64,000 nt of DNA from Candidatus Nomurabacteria bacterium. GTDB lineage: Bacteria; Patescibacteriota; Minisyncoccia; Phycocordibacterales; UBA9973. Every line of letters begins with the position of its first letter. Position 1 is the stretch's first letter. A program made the translations under genes and the position numbers. The stretch lies in assembly GCA_026395915.1 (NCBI GenBank), contig JAPLXU010000013.1:16428-80427 (forward strand), in the 5' to 3' direction. The notes beneath the pieces are model-generated. The model ran no database searches. It saw nothing but the letters and a program-made list of their open reading frames with translations, and was not told the DNA's origin. Shown piece by piece: positions 3,122 through 62,499 of the stretch.

Positions 3122-5245
3122 ATGGATAAATCTAGCATTCAAAAAAGAATAACAAAACTGCGAAGCGAAATCGCGCGATTGAGAGACGCTTATCATACAA
3201 AAAATGCGCCTGACGTTACCGACGAGGTGTATGATTCTCTGACTCGCGAGCTGAAAGAGCTTTTGCAAAATTATCCAGAATTTGACGATTCAAATGCTCC
3301 GGAAAACAGAGTGGCAGGCAAACCGCTCGACAAATTCGTCAAAGTAAAACACGAAGTGAAAATGTTTTCAATCGGCAATGTGTTTTCAGCAGAAGAACTT
3401 TTTGCTTGGGAAAAAAGAAACTTAAAATTACTTCCCAATCTACAAAAACAATCTTTGGATTATTTTTGTGAGTTAAAATTCGACGGACTGGCTATATCGC
3501 TTATCTACGAGGATGGAAAATTTGCAAGAGGTGTGACGAGAGGAGATGGAGAAATCGGCGAAGACATTACCCAAAATTTGAAAACAATTAAAACGATTCC
3601 GCTCGCGTTCGAGGCGCCATATCCAGAAAGGATAGAGATTCGTGGCGAAGCGATTATGAAAAAAAATGTGTTGAAAAAACTCAATGAAGAAAACGAAAAA
3701 GAGGGGAAATTACTTTTTGCCAATTCGCGAAACGCTGCGGCGGGAAGCTTGCGCCAACTCGATCCAAAACTCGCAGAAGAAAGGCATCTAGATTTTTTTG
3801 CATATGAAATAGCGCAAATCAAAGGAGAAAAATGGCAGAAATATGTTGATAAACATTCTTTGAAACACGAATTACTAAAAAAATTAGGCTTTGCCGTTGA
3901 TGTGTACGCGAAGGAGGTTGTCGATTCAAAAGACATTTTAAATTTCATCGATAAGATTTCCAAAGTCCGCGACAGTTTAGATTTTGGCATTGATGGAGTG
4001 GTTATCAATGTGAATGAAACGAAGATTTTTGAAAATCTTGGAGTGGCGGGGAAAGACCCTCGCGGAATTATTGCTTTTAAGTATCCGGCTGAGAAGGCGA
4101 CTACCATCGTGAAAGATATTTTGATTAATGTTGGGCGTACTGGTGTCTTGACGCCACTTGCCGTTTTTGAACCGACTCTCGTAGCGGGTTCTAGAGTTTC
4201 AAAAGCAACCTTGCATAATATGGATCAAATAGAACGTTTAGATTTACGAATTGGTGATACTGTTGTTATAGAAAAAGCGGGGGATGTTATTCCGAAAGTT
4301 GTCGAAGTTTTGACACGTATGCGCACAGGCAAAGAGAAGAAATTTAAAATGCCGAAAACTTGCCCAGCTTGTAGGGGGAGCATAGAGAAAAAAGAAACAT
4401 CTGCGCAAATTCGCGAAATTTCCTCTGGCTTGACCCTTCCCGGAGTACCGGGTGGGACCCACACCATTCAGAAATCTCGCGAATTTGCGCAGATGTCTGT
4501 TGCTTACTATTGTTCAAATCCAAAATGTCCGGCAAAAAATGAAAGATATCTTGAACATTTTGTGTCTGTTTTTGAAATATACGAGCTCGGTCCGAAAATT
4601 TTGAGTCGATTTAAAGACGAAGGATTGATAACAGACGCGGCGGATATTTTTACGCTTGAAAAAGTTGACATCGCGCCCTTGGAGAGGTTCGGAGAAAAAT
4701 CAGCCGAGAATATTATAAAAGAAATAGAAAACAAAAAACATGTTTCCCTCACACGTTTTCTGTGGGCGCTTGGAATTTTGCATGTGGGTGAGGAGACTGC
4801 GCGAGACTTAGCAGAACATTTTGGCACTCTGGAAAAGTTAATATTCTCTGCAAGGCAAGACCTTGCAGAAGTAGATAATATCGAAAACATCGGTCCCGCG
4901 GTATCAAAAAGCCTTGTTGTTTTTTTTAATGATAAAAATAATTTAAACTTCATAAAAAAATTAAAAAAAAATGGTGTGGTTGTGGAAAAAGCAGAAGAAA
5001 ATCTAGCAAAGAGAAACGGGAAATTAAAAGGATTAAGTTTTGTTTTGACTGGTACGCTCCCAAATATGTCTCGAGAGATGGCAAAAAAGAAAATAATCTC
5101 TTTAGGAGGAAAAGTTGTGGGTTCAGTTTCAAAAAACACTTCCTATGTCGTAGCGGGGGTTGATCCGGGTTCCAAGCTAAAAAATGCGGAAAAATTAGGC
5201 GTTAAAGTGCTAGATGAAAAAAAGTTCCAAAATATGATAGGATAG
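3122..5245 (+). CDS. ligA: NAD-dependent DNA ligase LigA (carries an in-frame insertion in the Zn finger)
   Basis: Adenylation motif KxDG (ELKFDGLAI), OB domain, Zn finger CPAC....CSNPKC, HhH region and C-terminal BRCT. 707 aa. Confidence 0.9.
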   Translation: MDKSSIQKRITKLRSEIARLRDAYHTKNAPDVTDEVYDSLTRELKELLQNYPEFDDSNAPENRVAGKPLDKFVKVKHEVKMFSIGNVFSAEELFAWEKRNLKLLPNLQKQSLDYFCELKFDGLAISLIYEDGKFARGVTRGDGEIGEDITQNLKTIKTIPLAFEAPYPERIEIRGEAIMKKNVLKKLNEENEKEGKLLFANSRNAAAGSLRQLDPKLAEERHLDFFAYEIAQIKGEKWQKYVDKHSLKHELLKKLGFAVDVYAKEVVDSKDILNFIDKISKVRDSLDFGIDGVVINVNETKIFENLGVAGKDPRGIIAFKYPAEKATTIVKDILINVGRTGVLTPLAVFEPTLVAGSRVSKATLHNMDQIERLDLRIGDTVVIEKAGDVIPKVVEVLTRMRTGKEKKFKMPKTCPACRGSIEKKETSAQIREISSGLTLPGVPGGTHTIQKSREFAQMSVAYYCSNPKCPAKNERYLEHFVSVFEIYELGPKILSRFKDEGLITDAADIFTLEKVDIAPLERFGEKSAENIIKEIENKKHVSLTRFLWALGILHVGEETARDLAEHFGTLEKLIFSARQDLAEVDNIENIGPAVSKSLVVFFNDKNNLNFIKKLKKNGVVVEKAEENLAKRNGKLKGLSFVLTGTLPNMSREMAKKKIISLGGKVVGSVSKNTSYVVAGVDPGSKLKNAEKLGVKVLDEKKFQNMIG
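4398..4495. repeat. Palindromic element (25-bp inverted repeats, one mismatch, flanking a 48-bp core with an inner hairpin) inserted in frame in ligA
   Basis: catctgcgcaaattcgcgaaatttc (4398-4422) and gaaatctcgcgaatttgcgcagatg (4471-4495) are reverse complements. Inner hairpin is cccggagtaccggg. The segment separates the CxxC and C..C halves of the LigA Zn finger by about 41 aa instead of about 14. Confidence 0.6.
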
Positions 5246-11895: not shown

Positions 11896-13716
11896 ATGAA
11901 AATTTCTTACAATTGGCTCAAATCATATATACCAGAAGCTCCCACGCCTGAAAAACTCGCAGAAGTTTTTACTTTTCATATTTGTGAAGTCGAAAGCTTT
12001 GATAGATTACCAAATGGCGACGTTGTTTTTGATTTGAAAATATTGCCGAACCGCGCGCATGATTTGCTTTCTCACCAAGGCATTGCTCGAGAACTTGCTT
12101 CGCTTCTTGATATAAAATTCGTTGATCCGACGGCAAAATATAAAATTCCAAAATCAAAACCGACAAAACTAAAAATAGAAATAAAAAGCAATAAGTGTCG
12201 CCGTTATATAGGCAGAATTATTAGGGGAATAAAAATTGGTCCATCTCCAGAATGGGTAGTAAAACATTTAGAATCCATAGGCCAGAGAAGTATAAATAAT
12301 ATAGTTGATGCCGCAAATCTCGTAATGTTTGATTGTGGTCAACCGACGCATGCTTTCGATTTGGATAAAATACCGGAAGAAAAAATCATTGTAAAGAATG
12401 CTACGGATTTAGAAAATGCTTCCATTACAATGGAAACTCTTGATGGAAAAGTTTGCAAACTGTCGAAAAACGATCTGGTCATAGCTTCTGTCAGCAATAC
12501 ATTAGCTATAGCAGGAATTAAGGGTGGTAAAAAAGCAGAGGTTCATAATGAAACCACAAATATAATTCTCGAATGCGCCAATTTCGATCCTGTGAGTGTT
12601 AGAAAAACTGCGCAAGCCTTGAATATCATTACCGACGCAAAAAAGCGTTTTGAGAATGATTTATCTCCTGAATTAGCCGAGTACGGAATGATGGAACTCT
12701 CAGCGCTTATTTTTGAAATGTGTCCAGATGCGATTTTTGAAGATGTCATTGACGTTTATCCTAATAAGGCTGAACAGAGAAAAGTTTTTGTTTCAGTCGA
12801 TTATATCAACAAGCGTCTCGGCTCGGATTTTTCAAAAAAAGAAATTGAGAATGTTTGGAAAAAATTAAATTTTAAATATGTAGAGAAAAATGGAGAATTT
12901 GAAATCGTGATTCCGTTTTCGAGGATTGATATAAACGATCCATGCGATTTGACGGAGGATGTAATAAGCGTTTTGGGGTACGATAAAATCAAAGAAAAGT
13001 TGCCAGAAACAAAAACTAAATCAAAAATGAATGAAACCTTTGCCAAAATGCTTTGGGCTAGAAACAAACTGCTCGATGATGGATATAGTGAGGTGATGAC
13101 ATACGTTTTCAGAGACAATGGTGAATTGGAAGTATTGGCTTCTGCCTCGGATAAAAAATTTTTACGCACGAATTTAACTGATGGGCTCAAGGAAAGTATT
13201 AAATTGAATCAAACAAACGCGTCGCTTCTTGGAATTGACAAGGTTAGGGTTTTTGAGATCGGGACCATTTTCAAAAAGAAAGGCGAGGAGATGCATGTTA
13301 CGTACGGAGACAAAAAAAATGTTGCCGAAGTCTCTTTGGAAGATTTTTGTAAAGGGCAGATTTTGCAAGGACAGTCCTTAAGAGAGTTTCCCCAAGGACT
13401 GTCCTTGGAAAAATCTAAGGAAACTAAGTTCAAAATGTGGTCCCTGTTTCCCTTTATTGCGCGCGACGTAGCTGTTTGGGTTCCGGAAAATGTAAAAAGC
13501 ACTGAAGTCGCTCAAATAATAAAAGAAAACATGGGAGAAATGGTGGTCCGAGGTCCGGAACTTTTTGATGAATTCAAAAAAGATGGAAAAACTTCTTATG
13601 CTTTCAGATTGGTTTTCCAATCTTACGACAGGACTCTCACCGACGCCGAGGTGAATGAAATTATGACGAAAATAACTGATAAAATAAAAGAAAATGTAGG
13701 TTGGCAGGTGAGGTAG
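11896..13716 (+). CDS. pheT: Phenylalanine--tRNA ligase beta subunit (short form)
   Basis: N-terminus MKISYNWLKSYIPE. B3/B4, B5 and C-terminal anticodon-binding-like regions. 606 aa. Confidence 0.85.
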   Translation: MKISYNWLKSYIPEAPTPEKLAEVFTFHICEVESFDRLPNGDVVFDLKILPNRAHDLLSHQGIARELASLLDIKFVDPTAKYKIPKSKPTKLKIEIKSNKCRRYIGRIIRGIKIGPSPEWVVKHLESIGQRSINNIVDAANLVMFDCGQPTHAFDLDKIPEEKIIVKNATDLENASITMETLDGKVCKLSKNDLVIASVSNTLAIAGIKGGKKAEVHNETTNIILECANFDPVSVRKTAQALNIITDAKKRFENDLSPELAEYGMMELSALIFEMCPDAIFEDVIDVYPNKAEQRKVFVSVDYINKRLGSDFSKKEIENVWKKLNFKYVEKNGEFEIVIPFSRIDINDPCDLTEDVISVLGYDKIKEKLPETKTKSKMNETFAKMLWARNKLLDDGYSEVMTYVFRDNGELEVLASASDKKFLRTNLTDGLKESIKLNQTNASLLGIDKVRVFEIGTIFKKKGEEMHVTYGDKKNVAEVSLEDFCKGQILQGQSLREFPQGLSLEKSKETKFKMWSLFPFIARDVAVWVPENVKSTEVAQIIKENMGEMVVRGPELFDEFKKDGKTSYAFRLVFQSYDRTLTDAEVNEIMTKITDKIKENVGWQVR

Positions 13717-23897: not shown

Positions 23898-25643
23898 ATG
23901 AAACAAGAAACAAAAAAATGTCAGAATTGCAAAAAAGAATTCACGATAGAGTCGGAAGATTTTAATTTTTACGAAAAAATAAGAGTGCCCGCGCCGACTT
24001 TTTGTCCTGAATGCAGATTGATCAAGCGTCTGCTTATGCGCAACGAGCGCACTCTTTATAAGCGAAAATGCGATTCTTGCGGTGAAGAAAAAATACTAGT
24101 TTTCCCGAAAGAAAGCGAATATAAAGTCTATTGCCACACTTGTTTTTACAGCGATGATTGGGACGGGCAAACTTATGAAAAAGATTACGATTTTTCTAAA
24201 ACTTTTTTTGAGCAATACAAAGAGCTATATGACAGTGTTCCCAGATTGGGAATTGCTAAACAAGGCTTTCAAGTGAACAGCGAATATGTAAATCGCGCGA
24301 GCGACGTGAAAAATTGTTATCTTATTTTTGCAAGCAACGTCAACGAAGATTGTTATTATGGCGTGGCATATTGGGAATCAAAAAATTGCATGGATTGCTA
24401 TAACGCACGAAAATGTGAGAGGTGTTATGAGTGCATAGATTGTTATAAATGTAACGGCGTGAAGTATTCGAAAGAATGCAACGAATGCATCGATTCCTAT
24501 TTCTTGAACAATTGTCGAAACTGCCAAAATTGTTTCGGTTGCACGAATTTAAGAAATAAAAGTTACTGCATTTTTAACAAGCAATACACGAGGGAAGATT
24601 ATTTGGCGACAATTTCCGAACTCAAGCTTTCGAACGGGGCGGAAATAGAGAAAATCGAAAAAGAAGTGAAAAAGGAATCTCTAAATTACGTTGTACCTTG
24701 CATCGTGGAAAAACATTCGGTGAATGTTTCCGGCAATTGGATTGAGAATTCAAAAAATGTGCAGAATTCTTATAATTGCGACAGGGTGGAAGATGGAAAA
24801 TATTTGTTTGGTGTTTCTGACGCCAAGGACGCTATGGATAACACATATTGGGGAGCAGGAAGCGAGCTAATTTATGAATCGTCCAGTATCGGCAGGCAAT
24901 GTTCGTCGGTATTTTTCTCGAATGAATCTTGGGATCAATTGGTACGAGCTGAGTATTGCATCAATTGTTTTGCTTCCTCGGACTTGTTTGGTTGTGTGGG
25001 GCTTCGCAAAAAGCAGTATTGCATTTTGAATAAACAATATACGAAAGAAGAGTACGAAGAATTGGTTCCTAAAATCAAAGAGCAAATGAAAAATATGCCT
25101 TTTGTGGACAACGTCGATAGAACTATCAGTTATGGCGAATTTTTCCCATCTGACATGCTTCCTTTTGCCTATAATGAATCTATAGCGCAAGAATATTTTC
25201 CAAAAACCGAAAAGGAAGCGCTTGCCGAAGGATATCGCTGGAGAAAACCGGATACGAAAAATTATGTTCCGACAATGTCGGCCGATGAATTGCCGAAAAA
25301 TATTAAACTGGTCAACGACAATATCACAAGTGAAATAATAGCTTGCGCGCACGAAGGGAAGTGCAACGAGCAGTGCACAACCGCTTTCAAAATTGTTTTC
25401 AATGAATTGCAATTTTACCGCGCAAACAATATACCGCTTCCGAAACTTTGCCCGAATTGCCGTCACTACGAAAGATTACTGAAACGCCAGCCGATAAAAC
25501 TCTGGCACAGGCAATGCATGTGTGACAAAGAAAATCACATTCACGGCGCGAATGTTTGCGAAACAGAATTTGAAACTTCATACGCTCCAGACAGGCCGGA
25601 GATTGTTTATTGCGAAAAATGTTATCAACAAGAAGTGTATTGA
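23898..25643 (+). CDS. Cys-rich multi-zinc-ribbon/CxxC-repeat protein, paralog B (unknown function)
   Basis: 581 aa. Same architecture and identical C-terminal 22 aa (TSYAPDRPE.VYCEKCYQQEVY). Central run of C-x2-C units at 9-12 aa spacing. Confidence 0.7.
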   Translation: MKQETKKCQNCKKEFTIESEDFNFYEKIRVPAPTFCPECRLIKRLLMRNERTLYKRKCDSCGEEKILVFPKESEYKVYCHTCFYSDDWDGQTYEKDYDFSKTFFEQYKELYDSVPRLGIAKQGFQVNSEYVNRASDVKNCYLIFASNVNEDCYYGVAYWESKNCMDCYNARKCERCYECIDCYKCNGVKYSKECNECIDSYFLNNCRNCQNCFGCTNLRNKSYCIFNKQYTREDYLATISELKLSNGAEIEKIEKEVKKESLNYVVPCIVEKHSVNVSGNWIENSKNVQNSYNCDRVEDGKYLFGVSDAKDAMDNTYWGAGSELIYESSSIGRQCSSVFFSNESWDQLVRAEYCINCFASSDLFGCVGLRKKQYCILNKQYTKEEYEELVPKIKEQMKNMPFVDNVDRTISYGEFFPSDMLPFAYNESIAQEYFPKTEKEALAEGYRWRKPDTKNYVPTMSADELPKNIKLVNDNITSEIIACAHEGKCNEQCTTAFKIVFNELQFYRANNIPLPKLCPNCRHYERLLKRQPIKLWHRQCMCDKENHIHGANVCETEFETSYAPDRPEIVYCEKCYQQEVY

Positions 25644-25663: not shown

Positions 25664-27934
25664 ATGCGACTCAAGACACTTGAAATAAATGGCTTTAAAT
25701 CTTTTGCCCAGAAAACCGTTTTGGAATTCAATAACAGCATCGTCTGCGTGGTTGGCCCGAATGGTTCTGGAAAATCAAATGTTGTAGAAGCTCTCCGTTA
25801 TGTTTTGGGCGAGCAATCTATGAAGTCAATGCGCGGAAAGTCGGGTTTAGACCTTATTTTTAAAGGCTCAAAAAGCTTGTCCAAAGGTTCACGCGCCGGT
25901 GTCACAATCTATTTTGACAATTCCGACAAGGTTTTCAAACTTTCAAATAGCGAAGGAGGGGAGATAAATTTGAATTATGAAACTGTCAGCATTTCTCGCG
26001 AAGTTTATTCTGATGGATTGAACAAGTACATTTTGAATGGCTCGGAAGTTAGGTTGAAAGATATTCACAATCTCTTGGCGTCGGTCAATATCGGTTCCTC
26101 AGGACATCACATCATTTCTCAAGGTGAGGCGGATAGAATTTTAAACGCAAACATGGTGGACAGACGTGAGATGGTGGAAGACGCGCTCGGTCTCAAAATT
26201 TATCAATACAAAATAAAAGAAAGCGAGAGGAAACTCGAGCGAACGGAAGAAAACATGAAAGAGGTGACTCTTCAACGAAGAGAAAACGCTCCGCATTTGA
26301 ATTTTTTAAAAAAACAAGTAGAGAAGTTTGAGAAAGCAAAAGAAATGCAGGCCGACTTGGCTATTTTATATAAAGAATATTTAAGCAAGGAAAGTGTTTA
26401 TCTTGAAAATGAAAAAAACACGCTATCTCTTCAAAAAGATAAACTAAAAAGTGAACTTGAAAACGTTGCAAGCAAAATTTCAGCTACTGAAGATAACAAT
26501 TCTGCCGAGGGTAATAAAAAAATAAACGCCTTGCGTGTCGTTGAAGGCAATTTGAATTCTATTCGCGGAATGAAATCTGAAATGGAGCGCAAGCTCGGCA
26601 GAATAGAAGGAATGATCGAAATGGAAACTCGCAGGGCGGAACAAAATATCGCCGTTGTTGAAATTTCACAAGAAGAAATTAAAGCCGTTATCGCCGACAT
26701 CAACAATTCTATCGATGAAGCTATTTCCAAGAATGACGTGAGCGAAGTTAAACCAATTTTGGAGCGTATCAAAAGTATCTTGAAGAAATTCTCTTCGCAA
26801 AATACAGAAAAGTCCGGCGAAAATATCGAAATAAAAAATCTTAAACAAAGCCAGCAGGAGATTCTCGAAGAGATGAAGGGGATAGAGAGCAAGGAAAAAG
26901 ATATTGCAAAATCAGCAGAACTGCTCAAACAAGAAATAAACAAAGAGATGGAAGCCTTGCGGGATCTCGAACGAGAGAAATTCACTTGGAAGGTCAGGCA
27001 ACAAGAGTTGTCTTCTGCTTTAGAACTTACAGCGATCAAAGAAGGGAATCTAAAAAGCCGAACCGAAGCTTTTCTTAATGAGATAAAAGAAGGTGTGGCG
27101 CTGATCGGGCAAGAGATTTTGGCTTACAAAGATGAAGTTGCGGAAGCCTTGCTTCCGCCAGCTGGCGGAAGCAAGGCTTCCGCAACAACTCAAGAAGAAT
27201 TGAAACGCAAAATTGAAAGGATAAAAATAAAATTGGAAGATGCCGGCCTCGGCAGTGGCGCGGAAGTCCTGAAAGAATTCAAAGAAGTTTCGGAGAGGGA
27301 TGGATTTCTGGCTAAAGAAATGGAAGATTTAGCGAAAAGCATAGAGTCATTGGAAAAATTAATCGCAGATCTCAAAGAAAAAATAGATTTGGAATTCAAA
27401 GAAGGCGTTAGAAAAATCAATGTGGAATTTCAGGAATTTTTCTCTCTAATGTTCGGCGGGGGAACAGGTTCTCTTTCTATCGTGGTTGAAAATAAGAAGA
27501 AAAGGAAAAACGAGTTTGAAGAGGATGAATCTGTCGACGTCGAAAGCTCTGGCGAGTCGAAGGAAGAAATCGTGTTTGAAAAGGGGATAGAAATAAATGT
27601 TTCTCTTCCGCACAAGAAAGTCAAAGAGCTCAATGCTTTTTCAGGGGGAGAAAGATCGCTCACTTCCATCGCGCTTCTTTTTGCCATGTCGCAAGTCAAT
27701 CCGCCGCCATTTCTCGTTTTGGACGAGACCGATGCGGCGCTCGACGAAGCAAACTCTCGCAAATATGGAGACATGCTTGAGAAGTTGTCCAAACATTCAC
27801 AGCTCATCGTCGTCACCCACAATCGTGAGACGATGTCTCGAGCGGGTGTGCTTTATGGAGTGACGATAGGAAGCAACGGAGCCTCAAAACTTCTTTCTGT
27901 GAAATTCGACGAAGCAACTGCTATCGCGAAATAA
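25664..27934 (+). CDS. smc: SMC-family ATPase (short SMC-like chromosome segregation protein)
   Basis: N-terminal Walker A GPNGSGKSN. Long coiled coil. C-terminal signature FSGGERSLTSIALLFAM and Walker B/D-loop FLVLDETDAALD. 756 aa. Confidence 0.7.
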   Translation: MRLKTLEINGFKSFAQKTVLEFNNSIVCVVGPNGSGKSNVVEALRYVLGEQSMKSMRGKSGLDLIFKGSKSLSKGSRAGVTIYFDNSDKVFKLSNSEGGEINLNYETVSISREVYSDGLNKYILNGSEVRLKDIHNLLASVNIGSSGHHIISQGEADRILNANMVDRREMVEDALGLKIYQYKIKESERKLERTEENMKEVTLQRRENAPHLNFLKKQVEKFEKAKEMQADLAILYKEYLSKESVYLENEKNTLSLQKDKLKSELENVASKISATEDNNSAEGNKKINALRVVEGNLNSIRGMKSEMERKLGRIEGMIEMETRRAEQNIAVVEISQEEIKAVIADINNSIDEAISKNDVSEVKPILERIKSILKKFSSQNTEKSGENIEIKNLKQSQQEILEEMKGIESKEKDIAKSAELLKQEINKEMEALRDLEREKFTWKVRQQELSSALELTAIKEGNLKSRTEAFLNEIKEGVALIGQEILAYKDEVAEALLPPAGGSKASATTQEELKRKIERIKIKLEDAGLGSGAEVLKEFKEVSERDGFLAKEMEDLAKSIESLEKLIADLKEKIDLEFKEGVRKINVEFQEFFSLMFGGGTGSLSIVVENKKKRKNEFEEDESVDVESSGESKEEIVFEKGIEINVSLPHKKVKELNAFSGGERSLTSIALLFAMSQVNPPPFLVLDETDAALDEANSRKYGDMLEKLSKHSQLIVVTHNRETMSRAGVLYGVTIGSNGASKLLSVKFDEATAIAK

Positions 27935-27935
27935 G

Positions 27936-28668
27936 AACTACGGAGGCGTTGCCTCCGTAGTTCGGCTACAACTAATTATTATCAAAGTTAAGCCATTCAA
28001 ATAGCTCTTTTTTGTGATCGTCAGGATTTTTAAAATATTCAGGGAATTGAGAAGGATTTATAATTTTGAACTTTTTGTCTTTATATTCTTTTAAACTTGA
28101 ATATGAGTAAGAAAAAACATATTTTAGTAAATTTGCTACATTTCGATTTTTATTTTCTTTCCAGTTTTTATCTATTAGTTTTGCCGGATTTAAATGTATG
28201 TATGAATAAAGATATTTTAAATAATTATCACTGTTTGCGTGGATTGATTTGAATACACTCTCGTACAATTTTCCGGTCCTCTCATATTTTTTATTGAAAT
28301 ACATTGAATAACTGGTCATAAGTTTAAGCATATATTTTGAGATTCCGTGTTCTATTTTCTCATGAACCAGAATGTGAAAATGATTAGGCATTAGACAATA
28401 TGTTCCAATATCAATAATAGTTTCCCCACGATCAAAATTCTCGCCAATATTTCTTAATTCTATACTTTTTGCTGTGTTGCAGATGTACATTAAAAATAGG
28501 AAGTGCTTATGGTCCTGTTCATCCAGAAATATTGTTCTTTTTTCTGTACCACGATTATATAAATGATAATACTCACCTGGAGCAAAAACTTGTTTTCGTA
28601 AAGTCATGTATAAAGTATAGCAAATAACTACTACGGAGGCAATGCCTCCGTATGTTCTCCGTATGTTA
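27936..28668. mobile_element. IS200/IS605-like minimal element (tnpA only) with subterminal hairpins
   Basis: Hairpins tacggaggc-gtt-gcctccgta (27939-27959) and tacggaggc-aat-gcctccgta (28632-28652) flank the HUH transposase gene. Tandem ctccgtatgtt x2 at 28647-28668. Confidence 0.6.
27972..28607 (-). CDS. tnpA: IS200/IS605-family HUH-Y1 transposase (RAYT-like TnpA)
   Basis: HuH motif NHFHILV. Catalytic Tyr region YLYSYIHLNP. 211 aa. Paralogous to 61795-62451. Confidence 0.7.
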   Translation of the reverse strand: MTLRKQVFAPGEYYHLYNRGTEKRTIFLDEQDHKHFLFLMYICNTAKSIELRNIGENFDRGETIIDIGTYCLMPNHFHILVHEKIEHGISKYMLKLMTSYSMYFNKKYERTGKLYESVFKSIHANSDNYLKYLYSYIHLNPAKLIDKNWKENKNRNVANLLKYVFSYSYSSLKEYKDKKFKIINPSQFPEYFKNPDDHKKELFEWLNFDNN

Positions 28669-29673
28669 TTTCACTTTTTCTTCTTTACCTTGAATTATTT
28701 TTTCCGGCTGGAAAACGGAATTTAGTTGCACGGTGTCTTTTTTTACTGTCATTGAACCATCTTTGTTCAATCTCACTTCGAGGAGCATTCCTTTCATCGT
28801 CGGCGCGCTCCAAGATTGATCAAAAATAAAGTTACCGAGAGAATAAGCGATGAAACTCGCGCACGAACTTTGAGTGCAATCTTTTCTGCTGTAAACTTCC
28901 GTGTCTTCCACGACGTGTGGATGAGTTCCGATAATAATTTTCGCGCCGTCATCGACTGCACGATGCGCGAGGTATTCTTGTCTCGCATTGTGTTTCGGTT
29001 TATATTCATCGCCAAAATGAAATGCGACGACGAGATAATCGACTTGTTTTGTCGCATTTTTTATTATTTCGTCAAAACGCGGATCGCTCGCCAAGAGGAT
29101 TCCATTTTGTTCGGCAGTTGCTTTCATCCAATTTGGATCGACGTCAGAGAAGCCAAGAAATCCTATTTTCATTCCGTATTTTTCAACAATAACTGGCGTT
29201 TCCGCTTCGATATTATTTTGTCCTCCACCAGTGTAGGCTATTTCATTCTCTTTTAAACGCGAAAGGGTGTCTGCAAAAGCAAGACGACCCCAATCTCCGA
29301 CATGATTGTTTGCTACAGATAAAACGCTTATGCCCGCGCCTTTCAAAGCAGGAATTGTTTCGGGATCCATTCTGAAAGAATAAAGATTGTGCATGTCACT
29401 GCCTTGGTCCGAAGCGGTACCTTCTAAATTTGCAAAAGCGATGTCAGAATTTTTGAATTCGTCCACGTTTTCAAAAAGCGCCGAGTAATCGTTGCTGAAA
29501 TTTTTTACGACTGATTTTCTCACTCCGCGGTCAAGCATTATGTCGCCCCCGAAGGCGAGCGTTACAAATTCAGGAGCTTTGACTTCCGGTATTACAACTT
29601 TTTCTTCTACTAAAAAATAAACGGGGAAAAGTATTACAATAACAATAAAAAATATATAAAGAAATTTTTTCAT
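28666..29673 (-). CDS. capA: CapA/PgsA-family poly-gamma-glutamate synthesis metallophosphatase-like protein (membrane anchored)
   Basis: N-terminal TM. LAFGGDIM, ANLEG, VANNH, GIHPHV metallophosphatase-like motifs. Confidence 0.7.
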   Translation of the reverse strand: MKKFLYIFFIVIVILFPVYFLVEEKVVIPEVKAPEFVTLAFGGDIMLDRGVRKSVVKNFSNDYSALFENVDEFKNSDIAFANLEGTASDQGSDMHNLYSFRMDPETIPALKGAGISVLSVANNHVGDWGRLAFADTLSRLKENEIAYTGGGQNNIEAETPVIVEKYGMKIGFLGFSDVDPNWMKATAEQNGILLASDPRFDEIIKNATKQVDYLVVAFHFGDEYKPKHNARQEYLAHRAVDDGAKIIIGTHPHVVEDTEVYSRKDCTQSSCASFIAYSLGNFIFDQSWSAPTMKGMLLEVRLNKDGSMTVKKDTVQLNSVFQPEKIIQGKEEKVK

Positions 29674-45579: not shown

Positions 45580-45614
45580 ATTTATCAAGGTGAGTCCTTG
45601 ATAAAGTAAAAGTA

Positions 45615-46127
45615 GTGGTGAAGGTTGAAAAGGGGAAATGGATATTTATGCAAAAAGATTTTGATAAATGGAACACAGAGAAAAAAGCTGTAGATGCAAA
45701 AGTTGTAAATACAGAACTTTTCTTTCATGCTCGGGAAATTTGGTGGTGTAGCGCAGGATTAAATGTTGGAGTAGAAGCAGATGGAAAACACGAAAACTTT
45801 GAAAGGCCGATGCTAATTGTAAAAAAGTTTAATGCGGATATGGTATGGGCGCTTCCACTTACTACGCAAGGAAGAAAAAATAAGTATTATTATAAGTTGA
45901 ATCACGAAGAAGTAAAATCGTGGGTTGTTCTGTCACAAATAAAAACAATAAGCACAAAAAGATTTTTGCGAAAGGTAGGATCTATTTCTGAGTCAGATTT
46001 CAAGGAAGTAATTTTGAGGTTGCAAAAGTTGCTAAAAATCGAAAACCCCCTTACGGGGGCTTTCTCGGAGGCCGAAGCCACTAATACAAGAAGTATAAAC
46101 GGCAATCAAAACAAAGTCAAGCGATAG
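45615..46127 (+). CDS. PemK/MazF-family protein, paralog 2 (orphan). The C-terminal 30 aa are probably read-through into a GC-hairpin repeat
   Basis: REIWWCSAGLNVGVEADGKHENFERPMLIVKKFNADMVWALPLTT...WVVLSQIKTISTKRFL is paralogous to 11092-11484. Homology ends near ..ILRLQKLL, after which the ORF runs through repeat copy 46041-46071. Confidence 0.55.
   Translation: MVKVEKGKWIFMQKDFDKWNTEKKAVDAKVVNTELFFHAREIWWCSAGLNVGVEADGKHENFERPMLIVKKFNADMVWALPLTTQGRKNKYYYKLNHEEVKSWVVLSQIKTISTKRFLRKVGSISESDFKEVILRLQKLLKIENPLTGAFSEAEATNTRSINGNQNKVKR
46041..46071. repeat. GC-rich hairpin repeat copy (ccccc-ttac-ggggg + tttctcggagg)
   Basis: cgaaaacccccttacgggggctttctcggag, inside the 3' end of the MazF-like ORF. 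Confidence 0.5.
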
Positions 46128-61767: not shown

Positions 61768-62499
61768 AAACCTGCAAGGCAAGACCTTGCAGGTTTAGTC
61801 ATTAAAACTTAACCATTCAAAAATTTCTCTTTGGAATGATTTGCTATCTGAAAAATACTCTGGAAAAGATTTGATGTCTAATATTTTATTTTGAATTCTT
61901 TTTATTCCCAAATAATCAAGATAGCTTGAGTATTTATAATTTTGCAAATATTCCAGAGTTTCTTTTTTATTTTTAATTCCAACTTCTTTCCAATCTTTTT
62001 GTATTAGTTTGATAGGATTCAAATGAATATAGGAAAATAAATATTTTAAGTGGCGGTCATCTTTTGCGTGTTCTGATTTAAATTTACCTTCAAAAAGTCC
62101 GCCAGTTCTTTTATATTTTTTATTGTAATACATTGCGTAAGCAGTTGTAAGTTTTTGCATAAATTTACTGATACCATTTTCTTCTTTTTGAGTTATTAGA
62201 ATATGAAAATGATTAGACATAATACAATAAGACCCGATGGACGCAATTTGTTTTCCTCTTCCAAAATCATATGGGCTTTCTCCTTTTGAAAGGATACCTG
62301 CTCTAAAATTATTAATAGAGTTACAAGCAAATAAAAGACCCATGAAATGGAAATAATCTTCATTGTCGTGAAAAATTTTCTGTTTACTATTTCCGCGATT
62401 ATAAATATGGTAATACTCGTCACTGATCAAATTTACTTTTCTTAAAGACATGTATATATTATATACTTGAAAATCTGCAAGGCAAGACCTTGCAGATTT
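61768..62499. mobile_element. IS200/IS605-like minimal element #2 with distinct subterminal hairpins
   Basis: aaacctgcaagg-caaga-ccttgcaggttt (61768-61796) and aaatctgcaagg-caaga-ccttgcagattt (62471-62499) flank the transposase gene in the same orientation. Confidence 0.6.
61795..62451 (-). CDS. tnpA: IS200/IS605-family HUH-Y1 transposase (RAYT-like TnpA), paralog 2
   Basis: HuH SNHFHILI. Tyr region YLFSYIHLNP. Overall similarity to 27972-28607 (…YYH(L/I)YNRG…YC(L/I)M(P/S)NHFHIL…). Confidence 0.7.
   Translation of the reverse strand: MSLRKVNLISDEYYHIYNRGNSKQKIFHDNEDYFHFMGLLFACNSINNFRAGILSKGESPYDFGRGKQIASIGSYCIMSNHFHILITQKEENGISKFMQKLTTAYAMYYNKKYKRTGGLFEGKFKSEHAKDDRHLKYLFSYIHLNPIKLIQKDWKEVGIKNKKETLEYLQNYKYSSYLDYLGIKRIQNKILDIKSFPEYFSDSKSFQREIFEWLSFND

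Follow-up and report, generated by a model that had tools for sequence, protein, structure and literature searches.

Y1-HUH enzymes of prokaryotes have been divided according to their tyrosine motif: the transposases of IS200 insertion sequences (IS) bear a Y---Q motif (Y[IV]ENQ) and are core-only proteins of about 150 aa (Quentin et al. 2018, PMC6006769, Table 1), whereas a 'Y---NP' motif defines class 2, comprising enzymes like the transposases associated with repetitive extragenic palindromes (REPs), or RAYTs (PMC6006769). Within class 2, the motifs NH[YF]H and Y[IV]HLNP combined with an SS-containing tail characterize subclass 2.1, the TIRYT group, which is reported as devoid of REPs and is typified by a terminal inverted repeat (TIR) consensus GGGG[AT][CG]A[CG] and a helix-turn-helix (HTH)-like tail (DnaA_C, HTH_23 or HTH_28); members of subclass 2.4 have a palindrome within the gene of the enzyme itself (PMC6006769). 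Y1 genes accompanied by their own palindromes or inverted repeats have been termed REPtrons and TIRtrons; they occur in few copies, their paralogues are divergent, and the repeats are also found inside genes, notably those for replication and repair (PMC3333891, PMC3733652, PMC5581495, PMC6006769). Here we describe a gene of this type and its hairpins in a 64-kb stretch (hereafter the window) of contig JAPLXU010000013.1 from a Candidatus Nomurabacteria bacterium, a member of the Patescibacteria or Candidate Phyla Radiation (CPR). A first-pass annotation had described the locus as an IS200/IS605-like minimal element and named a RAYT as the alternative. Our analysis indicates that the block at 27935-28667 is probably a compact REPtron/TIRtron-like unit, i.e. 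a class-2 RAYT/TIRYT-type gene with two cognate stem-loops.

The unit (27935..28667, minus strand, 733 bp) is an insertion relative to related genomes and consists of a hairpin, the HUH gene, its promoter, a second hairpin and a half-arm repeat. It is situated between the convergent genes smc (25664..27934, plus strand) and capA (28666..29673, minus strand; Pfam PGA_cap, 3.7e-67). As anticipated by the first-pass annotation, the open reading frame (ORF) between them (27972..28607, minus strand) codes for a 211-aa Y1-HUH endonuclease/transposase with the segments NHFHILV and YLYSYIHLNP, an identification supported by Pfam, alignments and a fold match. The gene-distal (3') hairpin, GAACTACGGAGGC-GTT-GCCTCCGTAGTTC (27935..27963), starts immediately 3' of the smc stop, ends 8 nt before the stop codon of the HUH gene and has a perfect 13-bp stem with the loop GTT (single-stranded DNA dG -15.2 kcal/mol, z -6.6). 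The gene-proximal (5') hairpin, TACGGAGGC-AAT-GCCTCCGTA (28632..28652), is 24 nt upstream of the ATG and has a 9-bp stem with the loop AAT (single-stranded DNA dG -9.5 kcal/mol, z -4.9). Their core pattern, ACGGAGGC-N3-GCCTCCGT, occurs exactly twice in the window against 0.00 expected occurrences, so that the proposed bracketing by hairpins holds. The block would accordingly read as an HUH gene bounded by two copies of a cognate stem-loop of the form CGGAGG-N5-CCTCCG. Likewise, the tandem CTCCGTATGTT that had been pointed out is located at 28646..28667 on the plus strand, with its first copy in the hairpin arm and the second touching the capA stop codon. The earlier statement that the two hairpins share the same orientation stands only in part: they match in 27/31 nt as direct repeats and in 22/23 nt as inverted repeats, and the loops GTT and AAT fit better with flipped copies. 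As the stems are palindromic, orientation is set only by the loop and flanks, and hence is ambiguous. The hexamer AAATAA, common to both 31-nt repeats, was considered as a target duplication, an idea left unsupported by the other elements, where nothing comparable is seen. A search of the region against Rfam returned zero matches.

The protein matches the Pfam Y1_Tnp profile (PF01797) with 26.7 bits (cutoff 23; E 6.5e-6), which bears out the HUH/Y1 identity that had been proposed from motifs. In NCBIfam its sole match is REP_Tyr_transpos (NF047646). The residues of the class-2 signature are present as N75-H76-F77-H78 in the HUH motif and Y136-I-H-L-N-P141 in the tyrosine motif, and these are followed by a C-terminal extension, a 70-aa tail bearing a conserved S170-S171. 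Conservation was assessed in two alignments of 43 and of 40 family members: H76, H78, H138, N140 and S171 are invariant in both, Y136 is nearly invariant in both, and P141 and S170 are each invariant in one alignment and nearly so in the other. A sequence-profile search of the PDB gave merely a marginal match to ISDra2 (E 0.07), and for this reason recourse was had to a fold search. The AlphaFold model of the protein (pLDDT 81, pTM 0.80) has as its top structural match the E. coli TnpA-REP with a bound REP hairpin (4er8; TMt 0.62, root mean square deviation (rmsd) 4.2 A over 184 columns), followed by the TnpA proteins of ISDra2 and IS608 (TMt 0.55-0.62); Foldseek matches to Thg1 were set aside, with a TM of about 0.3 and an rmsd above 10 A. 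No HTH was detected in this protein by Pfam even at E<=1. By its sequence features, the protein is a class-2 (Y---NP) Y1-HUH enzyme of the RAYT/TIRYT type.

The family to which this protein belongs is very large, with over 7977 matches to the single protein and at least 8000 to a profile, forming at least 8000 clusters at 90% identity. All organism names given by the sources are either Patescibacteria/CPR lineages or a generic 'bacterium', and the usual product name is 'transposase'. The family is apparently undescribed as hairpin-associated in the literature that we searched, and nothing on it was found by searching for Patescibacteria or the Candidate Phyla Radiation together with RAYT, REP or IS200. 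To characterize its architecture we collected 80 loci from GTDB genomes (36-76% identity), two further loci (L085 and L088; L numbers denote loci throughout) and the two copies in the window. Across Patescibacteria the arrangement is a property of the family: a hairpin, about 20 nt with a -10 box, a leaderless gene and a hairpin at the stop codon. A matched hairpin pair is present in 68 of about 72 testable loci, comprising about 70 relatives and both copies of the window, with scores of 19-45 for most pairs as against 8-12 in shifted-region controls. The upstream hairpin usually ends about 10-30 nt 5' of the ATG, and the downstream hairpin overlaps the stop codon or is closely 3' of it. The loops of the two copies point the same way in 30 loci and opposite ways in 32.

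Hairpins are matched within a locus, differ from one locus to another and diverge together with the protein. Hairpin sequences vary widely, with AGG-N3-5-CCT at the top of the stem being common to most, and arm identity is 0.91 within a locus versus 0.47 between loci. Moreover, arm identity climbs with protein identity, from 0.45 where the latter is below 45% to 0.81 where it is above 75%; none of 1000 permutations reached the observed correlation, although kinship among sequences inflates tests of this type. The window itself offers an instance of this, in the form of a divergent second unit (61768..62499, minus strand) in which a hairpin pair surrounds a 218-aa HUH gene (61795..62451, minus strand; Y1_Tnp 2.3e-9) whose product is 49% identical to the first protein. 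Its hairpins, AAACCTGCAAGG-CAAGA-CCTTGCAGGTTT (61768-61796) and AAATCTGCAAGG-CAAGA-CCTTGCAGATTT (62471-62499), conform to the consensus AAA[C/T]CTGCAAGG-CAAGA-CCTTGCAG[G/A]TTT, and the sole difference between them is a compensatory change of a C:G to a T:A stem pair. The different matched hairpins of the two elements imply that each gene bears its own cognate pair. The same is seen between orthologues: in the second protein of the window (W2) and its counterpart in L014 both flanking copies have been altered together, GCAAGG/CCTTGC in one case versus GCTAGG/CCTAGC in the other.

Several features of these loci bear on expression. In the window, an extended -10 box, TGCTATACT, lies between the upstream hairpin and the ATG: TATACT with a TG extension (28614..28619, minus strand), 6 nt 5' of the ATG, is preceded at a spacing of 17 nt by a -35 box TTGCCT (28637..28642, minus strand), which is made up of the loop and 3' arm of the hairpin. 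A -10 box with at least 5/6 matches is found in the hairpin-ATG spacer in 57/65 loci and ends 3-6 nt before the ATG in 40 loci, a proximity that implies a leaderless or near-leaderless mRNA. Upstream hairpins favour TTG on the sense strand (19 versus 6).

Further copies and parts of the hairpin are found at some loci. At several of them a third copy is in frame within a variable loop of the HUH gene itself. In L011 (10662-11324), L019 (8693-9400) and L033 (5642-6276) a third cognate hairpin is positioned beyond an adjacent unrelated gene coding for 190-200 aa, which means that the neighbouring gene is also bracketed by hairpins in a cassette-like fashion. Iteration of half-arms, as observed at the first element of the window, recurs at L085, L230, L070, L159, L186 and L184 and at many solo hairpins (L139, L142, L155, L189, L208); the tandem half-arms carry 3-5 flanking nt each, and sometimes are symmetric, giving rise to a longer nested palindrome. 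These iterations were considered as footprints of insertion boundaries, but they are present on gene-proximal and gene-distal sides alike (5-10/68 per side versus about 2 expected), and hence are not simple insertion footprints. Separately, we observed the DnaA-box-like octamer TTATCCAC 3-22 nt after the downstream hairpin in 7/68 loci (L025, L031, L034, L035, L043, L057 and L062) versus about 0.12 expected at its background density. Despite this enrichment, TTATCCAC is absent at both elements of the window, and a link to DnaA boxes is mentioned here as a side note only.

Hairpins of the same kinds are also present away from the HUH genes, as solo copies and inverted doublets that are often located in frame within housekeeping genes. 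In the window there are 7 AGG-N5-CCT hairpins with a stem of at least 6 bp versus 0.69 expected: four flank the HUH genes, and the other three are in ligA, in pheT and 3' of rpoC. A solo hairpin of the element-2 type is in frame in ligA (3122..5245, plus strand) at 4847..4869, with a 21-nt exact match to that of element 2 (0.00 expected). In addition to these seven, an inverted doublet in smc at 27137..27186, consisting of two copies of a related hairpin, GCGGAAGC-N3-GCTTCCGC, is REPIN-like; it forms a 50-nt perfect nested palindrome with a 23-bp stem (dG -32.9 kcal/mol, z -11), is in frame and codes for AEALLPPAGGSKASA in a variable linker. A decayed copy of this doublet is found in the smc of L027, whereas the smc genes of L003, L044 and L088 lack it, their products being 8 aa shorter there. 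In pheT (11896..13716, plus strand) another in-frame doublet at 13365..13410 (dG -17.9, z -7.7) consists of an AGG-N5-CCT hairpin (13392-13408) and, immediately 5' of it, an imperfect copy in inverted orientation; the window has no HUH gene cognate to hairpins of this type. Finally, a solo AGG-N5-CCT hairpin, TTTATCAAGG-TGAGT-CCTTGATAAA (45581..45605), is directly 3' of the rpoC stop and before a gene for a PemK/MazF toxin. Beyond the window, a metagenome scan for TACGGAGGC-N3-GCCTCCGTA recovered at least 120 loci with 150 hairpins among the matches listed, 32 of which flank an HUH gene and 118 of which do not, and these are mostly on low-GC contigs. The first-pass annotation had proposed a search for dispersed hairpins to tell the two readings apart; across metagenomes its outcome is of the REP/RAYT type, and the RAYT alternative, which that annotation had itself mentioned, is the better fit. 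Many of the dispersed copies are in frame, read TEALPPY or YGG[VNI]ASV and are found in homologues of miaA (IPP transferase), ksgA (rRNA adenine dimethylase), TatD, ligA (NAD-ligase), purL (FGAM synthase) and purD (GAR synthetase). The density of solo copies is low, i.e. a low, REP-like dispersal.

To understand the provenance of the unit, we compared its neighbourhood with those of related genomes, as the first-pass annotation had recommended. Three of these (L027, L042 and L044) retain the neighbourhood of smc, capA, RNase R and S16, with Smc proteins 77, 74 and 68% identical to that of the window, yet have an empty smc-capA junction with neither HUH gene nor hairpin, the two stop codons being about 7-15 nt apart. 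In alignments with these junctions homology stops at the smc stop (27934) and restarts at about 28668; this corresponds to the earlier estimate of a span of about 730 bp (27936-28668). The 733-bp block is hence a discrete indel, present or absent as a whole among related genomes. Other members of the clade of the first protein (W1), 73-86% identical, adjoin smc in L003/L213, L167 and L212, whereas in L088 the member is between RNase R and capA, and in L085, L108, L117, L141/L180, L159/L116, L184 and L186 they are in unrelated contexts. Taken together, the empty sites and varied contexts indicate more than one gain, or clean loss, of the entire unit.

Other evidence points to long residence. 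The W2 clade occupies the same locus, between proS and rpsB, in the window, L014 (77%) and L230 (80%), and orthologues hold the same locus across genomes whose flanking proteins are 65-80% identical. Conservation of the HUH protein is on a par with that of the proteins encoded next to it: in L003 it has 75% identity, compared with 69 for Smc, 65 for CapA and 81 for RNase R, and in L088 84%, compared with 69, 66 and 72, respectively. The low GC content of the gene (28% versus 41%) was considered as a sign of recent transfer and rejected, as in 80 loci the GC content of the gene follows that of the host (r 0.90, slope 0.92) at a constant offset of -9%, and hence low GC is a trait of the family rather than an indication of recent arrival. 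In exact-sequence look-ups, four proteins (P0001, W2, P0074 and P0181) were each found at one locus, in 11-24 contigs from many samples, and an identical CapA was adjoined by the HUH gene in 8/8 contigs. No polymorphism of occupied and empty sites was found in 8 population samples by exact look-ups of capA, both HUH proteins of the window, P0074 and P0181. Second copies inside the 80 GTDB loci are always divergent, and no near-identical second unit was found in the window or within these loci. Thus, the unit is confined to a single locus, is fixed in the sampled populations and often remains syntenic between deeply diverged genomes; gain or loss of the whole unit can occur, and no recent transposition is seen.

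These observations bear directly on the notion of an autonomous and currently active IS200/IS605-type IS, in which TnpA would excise the 0.73-kb unit as a single-stranded circle and insert it at a short target by the 'peel and paste' mode of IS608. The unit resembles IS200 (subclass 1.1) in that its one gene encodes a Y1-HUH enzyme, each end has a subterminal hairpin, the length is about 700 bp (here about 730 bp) and classical terminal inverted repeats are lacking. The absence of any hairpin remnant at the empty sites is what precise insertion or excision predicts, and the occurrence of close homologues in at least 9 contexts, one of them (L088) being an adjacent junction within the same gene cluster, would also be expected of such an IS. 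However, the tyrosine motif is Y---NP rather than Y---Q, and the protein has 211 aa rather than the about 150 aa of an IS200 TnpA. Whereas IS200 is multi-copy with about 99% intragenomic identity, near-identical copies are not seen in the 64 kb of this genome, where the two proteins are 49% identical, nor among the divergent second copies of the GTDB loci. Identical proteins at a single locus, the lack of occupied/empty polymorphism, the amelioration of gene GC to that of the host, synteny across genomes with diverged flanking proteins and the prevalence of solo hairpins (118/150 among the matches listed) are equally at odds with current activity. With regard to insertion of the IS200 kind, which takes place 3' of a fixed tetra- or pentanucleotide and duplicates no target, the flanks of 14 related elements have no sequence in common outside the hairpins, and the empty sites are too diverged to place the joint. 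We therefore regard an active IS as unlikely. Of the earlier description as an IS200/IS605-like minimal element, what survives is the HUH enzyme, the cognate hairpin ends and the discrete unit; the motif, length, copy number and conservation of locus speak against it.

Still less probable is passive movement, wherein recombination between near-identical hairpins, or with solo ones, deletes or captures the cassette while the HUH enzyme serves some other host function on hairpin DNA, for example at replication forks. The flanking repeats of 21-31 nt are indeed near-identical, and the extra hairpins bracketing adjacent unrelated small genes in L011, L019 and L033 would be in keeping with such capture. 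But recombination between repeats should leave one hairpin behind, whereas the empty sites have zero, and the repeats are very short for homologous recombination. It is highly improbable that this is a resident host gene lacking any DNA mobility, with its hairpins being mere expression signals (a promoter operator and a terminator) and those elsewhere ordinary terminators: the -35 box within the upstream hairpin, the downstream hairpin at the stop codon, fixation in populations and the conserved locus agree with it, but the hairpins are without T-tracts, unlike the evident terminators of this genome at 13863, 32594 and 53483, the same 19-21-nt sequences recur in frame within coding regions, the gene and its two hairpins are found, or missing, together as a block, and both flanking copies change in step between orthologous loci. 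The proposal that the hairpins are other than ordinary terminators is hence upheld by the missing T-tract, which makes the distal hairpin no typical intrinsic terminator, by copies in coding regions and by the match within a locus, the differences between loci and the covariation with the protein.

The REPtron/TIRtron-like interpretation is best judged against the individual systems. As in REPtrons (E. coli YafM, PDB 4er8, and the Pseudomonas RAYTs), there is an HUH motif with Y---NP and a top fold match to this group; copy number is low, and the paralogues are divergent, with a separate palindrome family for each; palindromes lie on both sides of the gene and also occur elsewhere as singlets and inverted doublets, some in frame in genes and even in the gene of the enzyme itself; and the locus is largely vertically inherited. 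Unlike REPtrons, the family is extremely compact (0.73 kb), has a promoter built into the hairpin, shows a low observed density of dispersed copies, misses the NCBIfam RAYT cutoff and is hosted by Patescibacteria, a phylum to which the literature searched links no RAYT/REP biology. With TIRYTs and TIRtrons (Di Nocera et al. 2013, PMC3733652; subclass 2.1, Bertels group 1) it shares the motifs NH[YF]H and Y[IV]HLNP, a length of about 210-240 aa, a C-terminal extension with a conserved Ser-Ser, and flanking inverted repeats with a capacity for self-complementarity and moderate repetition. The differences are that the flanks are perfect hairpins of the CGGAGG type rather than the consensus GGGG[AT][CG]A[CG], that the protein in the window has no HTH detectable by Pfam and that the 'FQ' motif is FK. 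Judged by its motifs, the family most resembles subclass 2.1, itself reported to be REP-less. Short palindromes in frame in housekeeping genes, notably those of replication and repair (here ligA and smc), are also reminiscent of Rickettsia palindromic elements and intragenic REPs, although here the inserts, of 19-50 nt, are members of the hairpin family that flanks an HUH gene. The best reading is that the family is a RAYT/TIRYT-like REPtron, set apart by its hairpin type, compactness, promoter-in-hairpin arrangement and host phylum.

Several points weigh against this interpretation. The hairpins of the family lack the 5' GT[AG]G foot of canonical REPs, the conserved part being instead the stem top AGG-N3-5-CCT; in those of the first element, CTAC-GGAGG...CCTCC-GTAG, the GTAG is 3' and base-paired, and other members of the family are without GTAG. 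The score against the NCBIfam RAYT model NF047646 is 31.7 bits, far under its 80-bit cutoff. The hairpin of the first element has no solo copy in the window. Extra solo copies beyond the ascertained one amount to about 1 per 31 kb, a figure itself derived from an ascertained sample, well under the >100 copies per genome that are usually cited for REPs (PMC2817692). Some of the metagenome contigs with hairpins are of high GC and probably represent chance or unrelated matches. The presence of 73-86% identical homologues in at least 9 different genomic contexts implies a unit more mobile than a strictly domesticated gene. Finally, we infer cleavage, the strand used and the target entirely from homology and layout.

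Under the REPtron/TIRtron-like interpretation, the protein would bind its own hairpin in single-stranded DNA, in the manner of TnpA-REP and the IS608 TnpA, and would cut and rejoin DNA beside it. Such an activity would spread hairpins, as with REPs and REPINs, and rarely would excise or insert the whole hairpin-bounded unit. Given that the -35 box is part of the upstream hairpin, binding there would probably also autoregulate the gene, and the downstream hairpin would probably end or stabilise the transcript.

We also entertain a further possibility, albeit a tentative one on which we lean toward doubt, that the family is an extant form midway between insertion sequences of the IS200 type and domesticated RAYTs: a self-contained REPtron of 0.73 kb that still moves whole on evolutionary timescales and whose hairpins are a CPR-wide source of in-frame insertions of 7-16 aa (TEALPPY/YGGVASV modules) within genes that are essential, for instance ligA, smc, pheT, miaA and ksgA. 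If this were true, the enzyme would be a significant mutator or diversifier in the tiny genomes of the CPR. The database label 'transposase' means that genes of this family would be counted as insertion sequences in surveys of the CPR mobilome, whereas the evidence points instead to RAYT/TIRYT-like genes that keep to a single locus, have long been resident and possess hairpin repeats of their own. The family also accounts for one class of short insertions found in frame in housekeeping proteins of the CPR, and, with a protein of about 210 aa, a hairpin of 19-29 nt and many natural pairs of protein and hairpin, offers a compact test system for the choice and spread of hairpins by Y1 enzymes.

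A few observations concern the individual insertions and neighbouring genes. The insert at 4847-4869 of ligA reads SARQDLAE and is in the helix-hairpin-helix (HhH) region of the NAD-ligase; compared with what we take to be a typical LigA sequence, that of the window presumably has no obvious change in length at this point. In the metagenome contig L185 a hairpin of the element-1 type is in frame in another ligA. The pheT doublet encodes QGQSLREFPQGLSLE, and its hairpin is of the type CAAGG-ACWGT-CCTTG. Among the Logan contigs with the element-2 protein (L095-L104), most of the short ones start some 76-81 nt 5' of the gene, or about 20 nt past the upstream hairpin, and L096 ends 28 nt after the gene, at the end of the downstream hairpin; these contig ends probably reflect breakage of the assembly graph at a repeated palindrome rather than biology. 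The PemK/MazF-family toxin gene after rpoC (45615-46127) is recognized by Pfam with 4.2e-15, and no obvious antitoxin ORF was noted with it. Upstream of smc, a Cys-rich ORF of 581 aa (23898-25643, plus strand) has a weak match, under the Pfam cutoff, to a treble-clef zinc finger.

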